64,000 nucleotides of DNA from an uncultured Actinomycetes bacterium (GCA_963753695.1 CAVWDG010000009.1:73975-137974), one strand, 5' to 3'. Counted from the stretch's first letter, positions 2,485 through 54,139 are shown. A program made the numbers and translations. The notes: generated from the sequence alone by a model not told the origin.

Positions 2485-3965
2485 ATGAGCGCACCTGGGC
2501 GTACCCGAGAATCGGTGAGGGGCTCGCTGCCGGCACTGGCAGCGGTAGTGGCGGTATTGGCGCTGCTCGCGGTCGCGGCCGTCGCCGTGATCGTGCTGCG
2601 GCAGACGGCGCCCGCTTCCCTCCTCGCTGGTGCGGCCGCCCCGACCAGCTCGCCCGGTCCGACCGGGTCGCCCAGATCGACCGGTCCGCTCGGCTGGAAG
2701 GCGCAGATGGGGCAGTATGGCGGGGACGACTTCGCCGCGATCGCCTTTGCCGATGGGCGGCACGGCTGGGTCGCGGGCTCGGCGGGCGCGATCTTCGCGA
2801 CAAGTGATGGCGGGTCGACCTGGAGCGAGCGGGGCTTTGACAGCGGAACGACGCAGTGGAGTTCGATCGCCTGCGCGGGTTCCCACCGTGCGTGGGTGGT
2901 GGGGAGAGCTCGAACAGCGCGGGGGCGTACCTCTGCGCCATCGCCGCCACCCACGATGGGGGGGACCACTGGCGCTCCCAAGGGCCGCCGGTTGAGGGTT
3001 CGCTGAACAGCGTGACTTTCGTCGACGCCCTGCACGGCTGGGCGGTGGGCTCTGCGTTCCTGCCGCACACGCATGCCTTGATCCTGGCCACCCGGGACGG
3101 GGGCGCGCACTGGTTGGTGGAGCAGTCCAGCGCGGGGCTGGCGCTCACTGCGGTCGACTTTGTCGACGCGAGTCACGGTTGGGCGATAGGCGACGACACG
3201 GGGCCGCCCGGCGGCGCCATTCTGGCGACCACCGATGGGGGCGCGCACTGGGCGACGCAGGCGGCGGGCGACGACTACGGCGGCGCCGGCGCCGTGACGT
3301 TCGTCGACCGCGACCACGGCTGGGTCGCCTTGGCCGATTCGATCGCGGTGACGACCGACGGCGGCCGTCACTGGCTCCGTCGCACCATCCCGGCCATGGA
3401 ATACCCCAACATCCACGGTATCGCGTTCGTCGATACCAGGCACGGCTGGGCCGTAGGCGGCGGCGGAGAGGACTCACAACGAGATGCCATTTGGGCGACG
3501 AGCGATGGCGGCGCCCACTGGAGCAGGCAGGACGAGGGCACCTTCGACGGGCTTGGCGCGGTCGCTGCCACGGACCCCCGCCACGCGTGGGCGGCGGGCA
3601 AGGGGCAGTCGATCGTCGCCACCGCCGGCGGGGGCCGGGGAACCACGCCGCCCCGCACGTTCACCTCGACGCCGCTGGCCCCGTCTCCGCCCGAGAGCTG
3701 GGTGAAAGTGGCGCAGCTGAGCGGAGTCGGGGCCGCCGGCGACATGGCTCTCGAGCTGAAGGGCTCGTTCCAGAAGATCGTCTTGGGCCGACACGACAAG
3801 TCGCTCACGATCCACCTGACGGATATTGACCACACAGGCTTCGAGATGTCCTGGTTCGAAGCCGGCAATGGGTCGACCGACACCGAGAACTGGGGCCCCG
3901 GGCGCTACACGATGAAGGTCGAGTGCGCCGGCGCCTGGACCCTCATCATGTACGACAGGCGGTAG
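2485..3965 (+). CDS. Membrane-anchored YCF48/BNR (Asp-box) beta-propeller protein; one apparent frameshift near 2900
   Basis: GGAGG SD, N-terminal TM segment, repeated F-x-D-x-x-HGW-x-VG and T-x-DGG-x-x-W blades across ORFs 2485-3006 and 2856-3965. Frames join in a G-run (GTGGGGAGAG). Confidence 0.78.
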
Positions 3966-24088: not shown

Positions 24089-24858
24089 CAGCCCTGCGAC
24101 ACACCTACCATCTGACCGTCCGCCAGGTGCGCAACTTTCTGCGCCAGCCCTGGTTCGTGGCGCTCTCGCTGTTCCAGCCGATCATCTACCTGCTGCTCTT
24201 CGGCGCCCTGTTCAAGAAGGTCGTCGAGATCCCCGGGTTCAGCACGAACTCCTACGTCTCGTTCCTCACTCCCGGCATCGTCGTCATGAGCGCCATGTTC
24301 GCCGGCGGCTGGAGCGGCATGGGCCTGATCGACGACCTCGACCGCGGCGTCATGGACCGCTTTCTGGTGGCGCCCACCAGCCGCGGCGCGATCATGCTCG
24401 GCCGCGTCACGCCCCAGGTGCTCACGATCCTCATCCAGACGCTCATCATCGTGGGCCTGGCGCTGCTCGTGGGCGGACGCTTCGGCGGCGGCGTGGCCGG
24501 CGCGGTCATGCTGATCGTCGTCTCGACCCTGCTGTCGATCGGCGTCGCGTCGCTGTCGAACGGCATCGCCCTGCTGCTGCGCAAAGAGGAGTCGGTGATC
24601 GCTGCGGTCAACATGATCCTGCTGCCGCTGATCTTTCTGTCGTCGGCCTTTTTGCAGCAGAACCTGGCGCCGCAGTGGATCCAGGACATCGCCCGCTACA
24701 ACCCGGCCAACTGGGCCATCGTGGCGGGCCGCACCGCGCTCTCGAGCGACGCCACGGCGCACACGGTGCTCACGCACACGCTCTATCTGGCCGTCTTTGC
24801 GGTCGTCTGCACGTTCCTCGCCACACGGGCCTTCCGCTCCTACCAGCGCTCCGTCTGA
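24085..24858 (+). CDS. ABC-2 permease (DrrB-like)
   Basis: ATGA overlap; six TM; FLTPGIVVMS, RYNPANW. Confidence 0.9.
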   Translation: MTALRHTYHLTVRQVRNFLRQPWFVALSLFQPIIYLLLFGALFKKVVEIPGFSTNSYVSFLTPGIVVMSAMFAGGWSGMGLIDDLDRGVMDRFLVAPTSRGAIMLGRVTPQVLTILIQTLIIVGLALLVGGRFGGGVAGAVMLIVVSTLLSIGVASLSNGIALLLRKEESVIAAVNMILLPLIFLSSAFLQQNLAPQWIQDIARYNPANWAIVAGRTALSSDATAHTVLTHTLYLAVFAVVCTFLATRAFRSYQRSV

Positions 24859-24908
24859 GCAACGGCGCCCGGCGCTTGCCCCGTCGGGCGCGGGGGTATG
24901 ATGCCGGC

Positions 24909-25066
24909 GAGCGAGAGCTCGGTCGTGTGCGGGACGAAGGTCTTCGGGTCGTAAACCGCTGTGGGGAGGTGACTCCTCCAAAGAAAGCTCCACACTCGCA
25001 CGCAAGTGCGGGGGAGCTACCGCGCCGGCTTTCGCTCATTGTGCGCGGCCCCTCGGGGCCGCGTTT
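24909..25066 (+). ncRNA. Candidate structured ncRNA of unknown family
   Basis: TATGAT -10 at 24897-24902; terminal stem 24909-18/25028-37; internal hairpins 24929-59, 24965-79 and 24986-25018; terminator hairpin 25044-63 followed by TTTGTCTT; no credible ORF. Confidence 0.6.
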
Positions 25067-25089
25067 GTCTTGGGGCAGGCGCCGAAGCT

Positions 25090-26166
25090 CTAGAGCAGGC
25101 CGGTGAAGTTGCCGGTCCCCCAGGGCGAAGCCGCCACGGCATCGGCCACCGCGATGGCGCTGGTCCCCGACCGCAAGGCCGCGAGAATGCCGCCGTAGTA
25201 GCCGTTGCGCAGCGTGGCGATGGTCGCGGTGAACCCCTGCGCCCAGCTGCGGTAGGCCTTCACGCCCACCGAGTTCATGGCGGTGGCGCCGGGCTCGGGC
25301 ATGGTCGTGTCGAGGGGATTGTAGTGGGCTGAGTTGTGCCAGTGGCCGCCCTCGGCCATCTCCCAGGCGGTGATCGCCGCCGCGTTCTGCTGGGTGAGCG
25401 GCATGCCGAGCTGTTCGAGCAGCGCTTTGGCCCACGTGATGGGCGTGTAGCTGCCCGAGAGCGGCACCGACGAGACCAGGCCGCCGCTGTGCGGGTTCTG
25501 GGCGGCCAGGATGCGCTGGATCTGGCGCGTGAACGCTTCGAGGATGGCGCGCCGCTGGGCGATCTTGTCGGACATCGCCAGGCGCTGCGCGTCGACCTGG
25601 CTCTGGGCGGTCTGTGAGGCGCTGCGCTGGCCGGCGAGCGCGTCGGCGAGGCCCGTGACGTGGGCGTTCAGGCGGGCGAGGTTGGCGGTGTCGCGCTGGC
25701 CCTGCTCGGTCAGGCGCTTGAAGAAGGTGACTTCGGTCTGCGCCTGGGTGAGGGTGGCCGAGCCGGCCAGCACGTCGAGGAACGAGAACCTGCCCATCTT
25801 GTACAGGGCGGCGAGGCGCGCGCCGACCAGGGCGCTCTGCTGGGCGAGCGCGGACTGCGACTGCGAGAGCTGCAGGCGTGTCTGCGAGAGCTTCATGTTC
25901 ACGGCTGTGAGGTTGGCGACGGCGGCGTTGTACTGGGCGCCGATGACCTTCATCTGCGCCTCGAGCTGCGCCATCTGGCGGCGCTGTCCCTGGACCGCCG
26001 CTTCGAGGCCGTTGAGCGTGGTCGGCGTCTGCACGGCGATGATCGCGGTGGGCGAGGCGGCGGCCCGGCCCGGCACCAGCGCGGCGCAGCAGAGGGCGAC
26101 GGCGGCGGCCGCCAAGGCGGCCGCCGCCGTCGCCCGCACGATCCGTGTGTGCCGACGGCGATCCAT
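25090..26166 (-). CDS. Secreted PcsB/CwlO-like coiled-coil protein with C-terminal lysozyme/transglycosylase-like domain
   Basis: Signal peptide, long coiled coil with YKMG..SFLDVLAGS, C-terminal AWEMAEGG...YNPLDTT...GVKAY. Confidence 0.78.
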   Translation of the reverse strand: MDRRRHTRIVRATAAAALAAAAVALCCAALVPGRAAASPTAIIAVQTPTTLNGLEAAVQGQRRQMAQLEAQMKVIGAQYNAAVANLTAVNMKLSQTRLQLSQSQSALAQQSALVGARLAALYKMGRFSFLDVLAGSATLTQAQTEVTFFKRLTEQGQRDTANLARLNAHVTGLADALAGQRSASQTAQSQVDAQRLAMSDKIAQRRAILEAFTRQIQRILAAQNPHSGGLVSSVPLSGSYTPITWAKALLEQLGMPLTQQNAAAITAWEMAEGGHWHNSAHYNPLDTTMPEPGATAMNSVGVKAYRSWAQGFTATIATLRNGYYGGILAALRSGTSAIAVADAVAASPWGTGNFTGLL

Positions 26167-51199: not shown

Positions 51200-52618
51200 G
51201 TGACGATCGAAGGACGGGTGCCGACCCGCATGGGCGACGGCACCTTCGTACGCCTGACGCGCAGCGAGATCAAAGCCGATCTCGTGGCCGGGTCAGAGGC
51301 GGCGGCCAAGCGGGCCAAGGTGCCCCCGCTGCACGGACGACGAGCTGGACCACCTGCTCGACATCTACGCCTCGTCGGCGCGCTTCACCGGCGTCGACAT
51401 AGGCGACGAGATCGTGCTCAGCTGCGACGGCACCGGCATGAAGACACACGCCACCCGCATCCAGGACCTGCAGACCTACGAGCAGTGGATGGGCGCCGAC
51501 CTGCTCGAGCTGTGCGTGGGCGACTACTCGCTCAAGGTCGTGCGCACCAACCTCGCCTACGAGGCGCAGTACATGCACGACGCCCAGCTCTGCACGGTGG
51601 CGCCGCTGCAGTACGGCGTGATGCCCAACCTGGGCCTCTACTCCAAGCCCGACGGACCCGTGCGACAACTGGAACGAGCTGCTGCCGCTGGGCCGCATCG
51701 ACGAGGCCCGCGCGTCGCGAAGAAGAGGCCGTCGAGATGGCCGTCGTCGACATGGTCGACCTGGCCGACACGCAGTGACGAGGCCGGCGCCGACGCCATC
51801 GACTGGGACACCACCGGCGCCTCGGGCGACCCCGAGTTCCTGGCCGCGCCTCAAGGCCGACCGCCATCATCCGCGAGAAGTACCCTGACCTTGGCATCCA
51901 GCTCGGCATGGCCGGCGAGTTCGTGCTCGGCATGCACGGCCAGCTCGAGTACGAGGGCGTGCGCCTGGCCGGCCTGTGGCCCAAAGACCAGCTGCTGCTC
52001 GCCCAGAAGGCCGGCGCCACCATGTTCGGACCGGTCGTCAACGTCAACACCGGCAAGACCTGCGCCTGGAACATCGCCCGGGCGATCGCGCTCGTCAAGC
52101 CGTGCATGGACGTGGCCGACGATCCCGGTGCACATGAACGCCGGCATGGGCGTCGGCGGCGTGCCGATGTTCGTGCACCCGCCGGCCGACGCCGTCTGCC
52201 GGGCGGCCAAGTCGTGCGTCGACATCCTGCACGCTCGACGGCTTCTAGGTAGGCTCGGGCGATCCGCACGGCATGCACAGTGCGCACGCGCAGGCGGCGG
52301 GCATGGGCGGAATGCGAGCAGCCGGAGATCTGGTGGCTCGCATGCAGATGACCCGCGGAATGCGTTTGAAAGAGGCCAAAGAGTACGTCGCCGGCAAGCT
52401 CGGCGTGACGCCGTTCGACCTGTCCGACCCCGTCGCCATGACCGACGTGCGCAACGAGTTCGGCTTTGGCCGCATCCACAGCTACGCGATCCGCCAGCCG
52501 CGCGCAGGCCAATCAGATCGAGGCCAAGTTCAACATCGCGCGCGTGCTCGACATGCCCATCAACTGCGTCGAGCGCTTCAAGGAACGTACGACGCCGGTC
52601 GCCGGCGGCGTGCGCTAG
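51200..52618 (+). CDS. mtbB: Dimethylamine:corrinoid methyltransferase MtbB with in-frame amber (putative Pyl); many apparent indels
   Basis: GGGAGGGG SD plus GTG; TRMGDG, PNLGLY..PDGP, LGMAGEFVLGMHG, PVVNVNT, HMNAGMGVGGVPM, LDGF-TAG-VGSGDP..MRAAGDLVARMQ..EAKEYVAGKLG. Confidence 0.88.
52312..52343 (+). promoter_or_regulatory. Candidate PYLIS-like stem-loop 3' of the mtbB amber codon
   Basis: ATGCGAGC-A-GCCGG-AGAT-CTGGT-G-GCTCGCAT, 13 bp including 2 G-U pairs; 63 nt after TAG. Confidence 0.5.
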
Positions 52619-52644: not shown

Positions 52645-54139
52645 ATGATTCGCAATCCACGCGCCGGCGCGCGCAAGAGCGGCGGCTTTCGGCTCGAGGT
52701 GTTCACCGACGACGAGCTGCGCGAGATCCACCTCGCGACGCTCGAGGTGCTCGGCCGCACCGGCGTGTTCGTCGAAGACGACGAGGCGCTCGAGATCTTC
52801 GCCCAGGCGGGCGCCGACATCGACCGCGAGCGTCGCGTCGTCTGCCTGCCGGCCCACCTGGTCGAAGACGCGGTCGACGCCGCGCCCTCCACGGTCGTGC
52901 TCTGCGGGCGCGACCCGGCCAACGATGTGGTCCTAGAAGACGGCCGCGTCGGCTTTACCAACTTCGGCGAGGGCATCCAGGTCGTCGATCCCTACACAGG
53001 CGAGCTGCGCGAGTCGCGCAAGGCCGACGTGGCCGACTGCACGCGCCTGATCGACGCCCTGCCCGAGATCGACGTGGTCGAGCGTCCCCTCGGGGCGCAC
53101 GACGTGCCGCCCGGACACGGCGGCCCTGCACAATGCCGAGGCGATCTTCTCGAACACCACCAAGCACGCCACCATCGGCCCGCTGTCGGGCTTCTGCGCG
53201 GTCAAGATGATCGACATGGCGGCCGCCATCGCGGGGGGCCGCGACAGCTTGCGCAAGCGCCCCATCCTGTCGTTCCTCACCTGTCCGGTGAGCCCCCTCA
53301 AGCTCGTCGCCGACGCCTGTCGCATCATCATCGAAGGGGCCCGGGCCGGAGTGCCGGTCAACGTGCTGTCGATGGCCATGGCCGGCGGCTCGTCGCCGAT
53401 CAACCTGGCCGGCACGCTGGTCACCCACAACGCCGAGGTGCTCGCCGGCATCACGCTGGCCCAGCTCACCGTGCGCGGCGCGCCCGTGATCTACGGCTCG
53501 TCGACCACCGCCATGGACCTGCGCTACGCGAGCGCGTCGGTGGGCAGCCCCGAGTGCGGCATGATCGGCGCCGGAGTCGCCTGCCTGGCGCGCTTCTATC
53601 TGCTGCCCAGCTGGGTCGCCGGTGCGTAGGGCGATGCCAAAGTGGCGGACGCTCAATCCGGTCACGAGAAGACACTCACCAGCCTGCTACCGGCGTTGGC
53701 AGGGGCCAATCTGATCTATGGGCTGGGGATGTTGGAATCGGGCGTCACCATCGACTACGCGCAACTCGTCATGGACGCCGAGTTCGCGCGCATGATCAAA
53801 TTCTGCGTGCCGGGCATCGCGGTCAACGACGCGACCCTGTCGGTCGACGTCATCGCCGAGATCGGCCCGTTCAGCGACTTTCTCTCGCACGACGACACCT
53901 ACCGCGGCATGCGCGGCCAGTCGCGCTCCAAGCTCATCGACCGGCGGGTCCGCGAGGAGTGGGTCGCCGCCGGCTCGACGACGATCTACGAGCGCTCGCG
54001 TGCCGAAGCCTGCCGCCTGCTCGAGACCCACCAGCCGCAGCCCCTGCCCACCGAGGTGGCCGCCGAGCTTGCCGCCATCATCGCGGCGGCCGAACGGGAG
54101 CTCGGGGTGGGGCAGGGCGCAGAAGACCGCGTAGGGTAA
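52645..54139 (+). CDS. mttB: Trimethylamine:corrinoid methyltransferase MttB with in-frame amber (putative Pyl); one apparent indel near 53110
   Basis: [89 protein letters not shown]. Same frame on both sides of TAG; ends at TAA; about 497 codons. Confidence 0.93.
53683..53703 (+). promoter_or_regulatory. Candidate PYLIS-like stem-loop 3' of the mttB amber codon
   Basis: CCTGCTA-CCGGCGT-TGGCAGG, 7 bp stem; starts 54 nt 3' of TAG. Confidence 0.42.

Follow-up and report, generated by a model that had tools for sequence, protein, structure and literature searches.

Helices 16, 17 and 18 (h16, h17 and h18) of 16S rRNA form the region of the five-way junction where ribosomal protein uS4 binds, nucleating assembly of the 30S subunit. 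Short cis-acting leaders of ribosomal-protein mRNAs are known to mimic rRNA, usually by a few nucleotides and through convergence. Stand-alone small RNAs (sRNAs) that sequester proteins are also known, including 6S RNA for RNA polymerase and CsrB/RsmZ for CsrA.

What S4 requires of its rRNA site has been established with a 200-nt RNA comprising the five-way junction (h3, h4, h16, h17 and h18), which binds S4 at ~1 nM (PMC2665224). In vitro, S4 tolerates truncation of h17 (446-487) or removal of the 530 loop (516-535); truncation of h16 causes a >380-fold loss of S4 binding, and deletion of h3 or h4 from the minimal RNA costs at least 3.5 kcal/mol of binding (PMC2665224). Single substitutions at 404, 405, 406 or 437 abolish S4 binding, as does the A509C/A510C double mutation, and the protein contacts G410, A411, A412, 425-430 and 508-512 (PMC2665224). 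The extra-ribosomal roles of uS4 include repression of the alpha operon and rrn antitermination (PMC10931766). In one proven S4 target, the rpsD (S4) leader of Firmicutes, the likeness to h16 is confined to its GUAA (PMC7247131).

Here we describe an element in a 64,000-nt stretch of DNA (hereafter called the window) from an uncultured Actinomycetes bacterium (GCA_963753695.1 CAVWDG010000009.1:73975-137974). It is close to certain that this element is a selected, structured RNA derived from 16S rRNA, and we judge the chances to be about even that it is a domesticated rRNA fragment that would mimic the uS4 binding site in trans. The element has in common with the S4 leaders of Firmicutes (rpsD) and Fusobacteriales an extra-ribosomal likeness to the uS4 site, the feature in common being the h16 GUAA (PMC7247131). 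Those leaders act in cis from the 5' UTR of rpsD or the alpha operon and carry few rRNA-like nucleotides (PMC7247131), whereas the element carries a complete h16 and ~150 nt of 16S homology and adjoins no ribosomal-protein gene. The logic proposed for it resembles that of 6S RNA and CsrB/RsmZ, in that a stand-alone RNA mimics a target and titrates an abundant protein. However, it has no sequence or structural kinship with these RNAs, its partner is putative, and it is a mimic by descent rather than by convergence. Full-text literature and database searches revealed no free-standing rRNA-derived mimic of a ribosomal-protein site, and the nearest described things appear to be the cis-acting ribosomal-protein leaders and engineered minimal rRNAs.

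Architecture of the element

The element resides in a 230-nt spacer between a gene for an ABC-2 permease (+ strand, stop at 24858) and a 358-amino acid open reading frame (- strand, stop at 25090), these flanking genes being convergent. The parts of the element and its surroundings, with positions counted from the first letter of the window, are as follows.

24861-24863, + strand: conserved AAC, usually inside CAACGGC
24865-24891, + strand: upstream hairpin P0, 10 bp with the 7-nt loop CTTGCCC
24894-24902, + strand: GGG followed by TATGAT (24897-24902), a probable -10 element; GGGTA is invariant in all homologs
24909-24927, + strand: 5' strand of P1, GAGCGAGAGC-u-CGG-u-CGUG (RNAalifold, pair counts)
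24928, + strand: junction U corresponding to 16S U405 (colinear alignment with four real 16S genes)
24929-24959, + strand: P2, a full-length copy of 16S helix 16, with identical letters in genuine 16S of other phyla
24960, + strand: U corresponding to 16S U437, a uS4 contact in the ribosome; CCGCUG is invariant in all copies
24962-24980, + strand: P3, the base of 16S helix 17, UGGGGAGG-uga-CUCCUCCA, with a short loop (alignment, RNAalifold)
24981-24986, + strand: junction AAGAAA, which together with the GC that opens P4 corresponds to the 16S h17/h18 linker (AGGAAGC / AGAAAGC)
24987-25017, + strand: P4, the base of 16S helix 18 (GCUCC/GGAGC), in which a GCAA-capped hairpin replaces the 530 loop (type A)
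25021-25037, + strand: 3' strand of P1, CGCG-CCG-GCUUUCGCUC (RNAalifold, pair counts, alignment)
25043-25072, + strand: intrinsic-terminator-like hairpin, 9 bp (8 G-C), then UUUGUCUU (terminator search)

The consensus fold obtained with RNAalifold consists of a closing stem and three hairpins that meet in a four-way junction. Within the closing stem, 24909-24918 pairs with 25028-25037, and pairing continues inward with 24920-24922/25025-25027 and 24924-24927/25021-25024. In the colinear alignment, the CGUG at the end of its 5' strand falls on 16S nucleotides 401-404, and CGCGCCGG in its 3' strand falls on the corresponding strand of 16S helix 3, the 3' one (AGCGUUGUCCGG). P2 has GCGG/CCGC as its lower stem and GGYC/GGUC as its upper stem, with the internal loop GAYGAA/GUAAA between the two and UUCG as the terminal loop. 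Downstream of P1, the terminator-like hairpin proper spans 25043-25064 and is followed by TTTGTCTT. An earlier reading of the window from its sequence only had proposed a TATGAT -10 box, a closing stem, three hairpins (one with a GCAA loop), and an intrinsic terminator between convergent genes, and every one of these parts was recovered where it had been placed.

The + strand of the region folds with -90.8 kcal/mol (z = -4.1), and none of 200 dinucleotide shuffles folded as well. The G-U pairs that recur among the homologs identify the + strand as the RNA strand. A minus-strand reading was rejected, since its fold is weaker (z = -3.3 versus -4.1) and the conserved G-U pairs would turn into A-C mismatches.

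Origin in 16S rRNA

The whole unit is colinear with 16S rRNA from about nucleotide 401 to 556, a region that includes h16, h17 and h18. A covariance model (R1) was built from nine homologs and used, along with BLAST, to search relatives of the host. Among these relatives, R1 scores true homologs at 93-171 bits and also matches the 16S genes of ~45 genomes (25-31 bits, E 1e-5 to 7e-4, model positions 34-135). These 16S matches include the host's own gene (C6:38231-38379), which lies inside the real 16S at G000:C6:37828-39374. In the resulting alignment P2 falls on h16, P3 on the base of h17 with an additional 41 nt in the rRNA, and P4 on the base of h18 with an additional 31 nt in the rRNA. An alignment made by MAFFT with four real 16S genes is likewise colinear, from the CGUGU before h16 to the CCGG after h18. 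The conserved AAC upstream also resembles CAACGCCGCG, which precedes h16 in real 16S, a stretch too short to weigh.

In the opposite search direction, the 16S rRNA family of Rfam (RF00177) matches the copy in genome G021 with 65.6 bits (gathering score 50, E = 3.8e-17) over model positions 401-535. This is the sole Rfam match in the element family. Significant colinear likeness to h16-h18 was thus found in both search directions. With ~130 nt that correspond to model positions 401-535 only, the element is not a 16S gene, whose full length is ~1,500 nt.

An exact scan of 185,579 species genomes with a 33-nt h16 pattern (GCGGGAYGAARGYCTNNNGGTCGTAAACCGCTG) yielded 44 loci, comprising nine copies of the element and 35 partial matches of the 16S type (37-46 bits with the element model). 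All 12 non-element loci that were tested are bona fide 16S genes, and these came from Planctomycetota, Omnitrophota, Gemmatimonadales, Armatimonadota, CPR bacteria, Deinococcales and Nitrospinae. Overall, the element model matches 16S genes with E values of 1e-5 to 1e-11. The resemblance of one hairpin to h16 that the sequence-only reading had pointed out is therefore real and beyond chance. Its proposal of 16S mimicry holds with respect to the likeness to the uS4 region; it was too narrow in naming h16 alone, because the whole unit is a miniature of h16-h17-h18.

The match to the host's own 16S, for which the same reading had named BLASTN as a check, is weaker (18/20, E = 0.017; ~30/38 by eye). 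The host h16 reads GAGC-GAAGAA-GGCC-UUCG-GGUU-GUAAA-GCUC and that of the element GCGG-GAYGAA-GGYC-UUCG-GGUC-GUAAA-CCGC. From host to element, the lower stem has thus undergone two compensatory pair changes, from A-U to C-G and from C-G to G-C. These changes indicate that the element is not homogenised with the rRNA gene and that the helix is under selection. The element may derive from an ancestral 16S of the lineage or from a foreign 16S. The closing stem of h18 in the host 16S is itself unusual (GGUCC...GGACC); most bacteria and the type C elements described below have GCCCC...GGGGC.

Conservation and covariation

BLAST and R1 located the element in 10 of the 89 genomes of the host's family within the Thermoleophilia, and the order-level search covered these same 89 genomes. 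The carriers are eight of the 12 genomes of the host genus and one genome in each of two other genera (G021 and G081). Two wider samples, one of 301 genomes from the class and one of 401 from the phylum (~700 other Actinomycetota together), did not contain the element. A scan of metagenomes added seven further contigs, giving 15 distinct sequences in total. The distribution is therefore narrow, being confined to one family of uncultured Thermoleophilia of soil and peat.

Across the 15 distinct sequences, the consensus fold has 40 pairs, and 95.9% of cells are paired. Changes on both sides occur at 11 pairs, compared with 3.9 +/- 1.4 in shuffled alignments, and none of 500 shuffles reaches 11. 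Slid controls are paired at ~45% of cells, with no more than three pairs that change on both sides. P1 (helix 1 of the consensus) accounts for 17 pairs, with 94.5% of cells paired and both-side changes at three pairs, and in P4 (helix 5 of the consensus) four of the five pairs change on both sides. In P3 (helix 4 of the consensus), from which distal h17 is deleted, compensatory changes are found in G081 and G021. The lower stem and internal loop of P2 are invariant in all 15 sequences, save for the Y at position 412. These data bear out the earlier claim of an unannotated structured RNA unit, with a structure conserved among 15 distinct sequences and 11 covarying pairs against 3.9 in shuffles.

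A 65-nt core of the element is 89-98% identical between genomes in which the adjacent protein gene has a DNA identity of only 72-92%. Because the core changes more slowly than its neighbouring protein gene, it is under purifying selection. There is one copy per genome, and the possibility of a repeat or mobile element was rejected for this reason.

The element is dispensable, given that four of the 12 genomes of the host genus lack it. In one of these (G007), the shared upstream flank extends up to ...GCAGCCACG and is followed by CCGGCTTCCGCTC, which corresponds to the 3' strand of P1 (G007:C43, L126:2600-2900, -). Read by eye, this junction looks like a clean deletion scar. Two other genomes, G001 and G005, lack the element and carry a hemerythrin gene at its site.

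These losses, together with the Rfam match by which the G021 copy would be labelled a partial 16S gene, might be expected if the element were a neutral, functionless remnant of a 16S gene that had decayed or been transferred. Several observations make such a relic very improbable. The element evolves more slowly than the neighbouring protein gene, it has compensatory changes in three helices and a purpose-built closing stem, its h17 is neatly capped by a tetraloop, and it has been kept across three genera in changing gene contexts. The G021 copy scores like a partial 16S gene or pseudogene (RF00177), but the element differs from such sequences in representing ~10% of 16S with internal deletions, in its covarying closing stem, in its conservation across genera and in its location outside any rRNA operon. 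Annotation pipelines could label units of this kind 'partial 16S rRNA', and tools that assess amplicon or metagenome-assembled genome (MAG) quality could misread them as rRNA fragments.

The window's copy matches no known family in Rfam 15. At the gathering score, a search of the whole window returned no family for it, and at E <= 10 a search of 24700-25250 returned nothing relevant, the two matches obtained being noise. A divergent 6S-like RNA, which would sequester RNA polymerase, had also been suggested. The two have in common only that they are structured RNAs of suitable size that stand alone, and the likelihood of this alternative is next to negligible. There is no 6S match at E <= 10, the unit is homologous to 16S, and its fold has a four-way junction rather than an interrupted rod with a central bubble.

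Promoter, transcript ends and gene context

The GGGTA that precedes P1 is invariant in all copies. The -10-like box of which it is part reads TATGAT, TATGCT, TAGGAT or TACCAT in six of the 10 genome copies and TATCAA, TATCAC or TACGAG in the other four, in which the last base is not T. The conserved AAC lies 36 nt upstream of the TA of this box in seven of the 10. A two-hexamer sigma-70 scan of the element region returned no full promoter. In the same genome, tRNA genes are preceded by similar (G)GTAnnnT boxes (GTATGATGCCG for tRNA-Leu, GGGTATGCG for tRNA-Trp and GGGTACAAA for tRNA-Ala). Given the conservation of GGGTA and the similar boxes of the tRNA genes, it is reasonable to read this motif as a -10 element, which would put the 5' end of the RNA just before P1. 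At the 3' end, a canonical terminator is found in G000, G002 and G004, and other homologs have a U-rich run directly after P1. Judging from these signals, the element most likely has its own promoter and would yield an RNA of ~130-170 nt.

P0 lies between AAC and GGGTA and overlaps the expected -35 position. Its sequence is variable, its length and position are conserved, and it is predicted in nearly all 15 homologs (weakly in G081). Its closing pairs change on both sides (CGGCG/CGCCG, CGGCAG/CTGCCG and CGACA/TGTCG). P0 could be an I-shaped terminator of the ABC-2 gene, overlapping the promoter, or it could extend the RNA at its 5' end. Pairing of GGGUA or AACGGC with downstream segments was also considered and dropped, since the complementarity, examined by eye, is inconsistent across homologs.

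In the host genus the element is always flanked by genes for an ABC ATPase and the ABC-2 permease upstream and by the gene for the 358-amino acid secreted coiled-coil protein downstream. In G021 the flanking genes encode a phosphoesterase (upstream) and a hemerythrin (downstream), and in G081 there is a divergent methyltransferase gene upstream and a convergent HAD hydrolase gene downstream. The element is thus independent of its neighbours, and the orientation of the flanking genes in G081 indicates that this copy needs a promoter of its own. The AT-rich divergent intergenic region between the SAM-methyltransferase gene and the element in G081 (L067:4913-5000) contains a palindrome, TTGATGTCACTATACATCAA, which from its sequence is likely an operator site.

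This gene context also bears on whether the element acts in cis, either as a 3' UTR or terminator that stabilizes the ABC-transporter mRNA or as a uS4-responsive leader or attenuator of a downstream gene. The element begins 50 nt after the ABC-2 stop codon in the window's genus, with only P0 between them, and the covariation of P0 would fit a longer transcript. Furthermore, a co-directional hemerythrin gene lies ~190 nt downstream in G021. However, the gene upstream in G081 is on the opposite strand and the one downstream is convergent, the downstream gene is convergent in most genomes, G005 and G001 carry the hemerythrin gene without the element, and an invariant -10-like box immediately precedes the closing stem. 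We therefore regard a cis-acting role as quite improbable.

Membership among ribosomal-protein leaders was rejected as well, since rpsD resides on another contig in a normal operon: on contig C10 it belongs to an ordinary rpsM-rpsK-rpsD-rpoA cluster, whereas the contig of the element is C9. The element has the mimicry of an rRNA site (h16 GUAA) that is typical of S4 leaders, but it has neither their position nor a match to an S4 leader in Rfam. The host's rpsD and rpoA look split or truncated (G000:C10, L071:1486-2231 and 2571-3101), with an S4 that ends at 178 amino acids and has a second overlapping frame, and with rpoA recovered only in pieces. Indel errors in a long-read MAG are a more probable cause than real pseudogenes.

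The gene for the 358-amino acid protein (25090-26166, - strand) stays within 2.3 kb of the element in all genomes. The gene is also present where the element is missing, namely in G001, G005 and G007 and in other genera. A functional pairing of the two was rejected on these grounds, and their proximity is read as inherited synteny. The protein combines a signal peptide with a long coiled coil rich in Q and A, and its C-terminal domain (...WEMAEGGHWHNSAHYNPLDT...) is conserved. It has one to four matches per genome across the family, and it matches nothing in Pfam. From these sequence features, it looks like a secreted cell-wall protein in the style of PcsB/CwlO with an undescribed catalytic domain.

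Grades of reduction among the copies

The copies of the element represent different grades of reduction of the ancestral rRNA. Type C copies (G021 and G081, from the two other genera) have a full-length h18 with GCCCCGGCUAACUACGUG verbatim. They keep the GCC of the 530-loop pseudoknot and the segment GGCUAAC, with changes at those decoding bases of the loop that are universally conserved. Type B copies (G006, G009 and one metagenome contig) are intermediate. Type A copies (that of the window and most of its genus) have the 5-bp base of h18 only, with a short hairpin cap. In all types, distal h17 is swapped for a 3-4-nt loop on the base GGGGAGG/CCUCC (a compensated variant of this base in G081), and h3 and h4 of 16S are replaced by one new stem, P1.

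uS4 as a candidate partner

The rRNA parts that are kept can be set against the known determinants of S4 binding. All copies have U437, and h16 is retained in full, including G410, A411 and 425-430. The GUG at 404-406, which uS4 touches in the ribosome, occurs in 14 of the 15 distinct copies; the nucleotide equivalent to U405 is likewise U in 14 and G in G081. Discarded are distal h17 (~446-487) and, in the window's genus, the 530 loop. Because the retained parts match the requirements of S4, we infer that the element may bind uS4. Two features need to be weighed against this. First, h3 and h4 are present as a single closing stem rather than as separate helices, which counts against a native-like uS4 complex. 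Second, type A copies are without nucleotides 505-511 (GGCUAAC), including A509 and A510, which are found in type C only (G021 and G081). These two differences suggest that binding may be weaker or differently organised, or that the element has another partner.

A close parallel is the engineered minimal five-way-junction RNA (Bellur & Woodson 2009, PMC2665224), which covers the same 16S region (h16, h17, h18 and the junction). In that construct as in the element, distal h17 is capped by a tetraloop, the 530 loop is removed, and 404-406, 437 and all of h16 are kept. The construct is ~200 nt and the element ~130 nt. The former keeps h3 and h4 as separate helices, both of them essential, whereas the element fuses their 3' strands and has a four-way junction. 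Moreover, the former is a construct, whereas the element is a genomic unit under selection, copies of which in the window's genus are without nucleotides 505-511. The trimming seen in nature is nearly that by which biochemists defined the minimal S4 site. Distal h17 and the 530 loop were dropped and h3 and h4 merged, and what has been retained is h16, the bases of h17 and h18, U437 and the GUG at 404-406.

An alternative is that the same domesticated 16S fragment serves another partner, one that recognizes h16-h18 in nascent 16S rRNA. This could be an assembly chaperone, uS12, bS16 or a pseudouridine synthase of the RsuA type that modifies h18, or else a nuclease or toxin that the RNA would divert as a decoy. 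The missing separate h3 and h4 and the loss of nucleotides 508-512 in the main genus speak against a native uS4 complex, and the retention in type C of h18 up to G517 and of the pseudoknot GCC suits enzymes directed at h18. However, most copies have lost both the 530 loop and the U516 region while h16 is invariant, and among the binders covered in PMC2665224 it is S4 that specifically requires h16. In addition, no candidate gene is consistently adjacent to the element. On balance, we consider a partner other than uS4 unlikely.

With uS4 as the favoured partner, we propose the following mechanism. A fragment of 16S rRNA from about nucleotide 401 to 556 has been domesticated, with h16 left complete, h17 cut to its base and h18 cut to a variable extent. 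A new 17-bp stem closes the fragment, taking the place of h3 and h4. Transcription from the element's own promoter, with GGGTATGAT as the -10 box, would start just before the closing stem and would terminate either in the U-rich run behind that stem or in the terminator hairpin. The four-way junction of the resulting RNA may present the uS4-binding surface of the 30S 5' domain, such that free uS4 could be bound in trans and the RNA would act as a sponge or buffer. The availability of uS4 for 30S assembly, for repression of rpsM-rpsK-rpsD-rpoA and for rRNA antitermination might be altered as a result, and the extra-ribosomal roles would offer such a sponge evident leverage over regulation. Three further observations speak against this mechanism: the element is dispensable within the genus, its -10-like box does not end in T in four of the 10 genome copies, and P0 and the conserved AAC have no place in it. 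The full proposal, in which the uS4 nucleation site has been turned into a separate sRNA gene whose product is a trans-acting sponge or buffer coupling 30S assembly, alpha-operon translation and rRNA antitermination, is tentative, and we give it somewhat less than even weight.

The element is a free-standing mimic that descended from 16S rRNA itself and was trimmed by evolution. It allows a direct test of what uS4 requires of the five-way junction in vivo, and of whether bacteria regulate a primary assembly protein by a decoy in trans. If the proposal is true, a stand-alone RNA that derives from rRNA and regulates a ribosomal protein would here be described for the first time, as far as our literature searches show, and the element would constitute a natural experiment on the minimal uS4 site without separate helices 3 and 4.

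Other RNA features of the window and the host genome

Two further RNA features in the window scored above the Rfam gathering score, PYLIS_2 (mtbB, 65.7 bits) at 52246-52345 and PYLIS_3 (mttB, 72 bits) at 53627-53726, both on the + strand. According to ARAGORN, the host genome encodes tRNA-Pyl (C11, near 39920) and tRNA-SeC (C11, near 348142).
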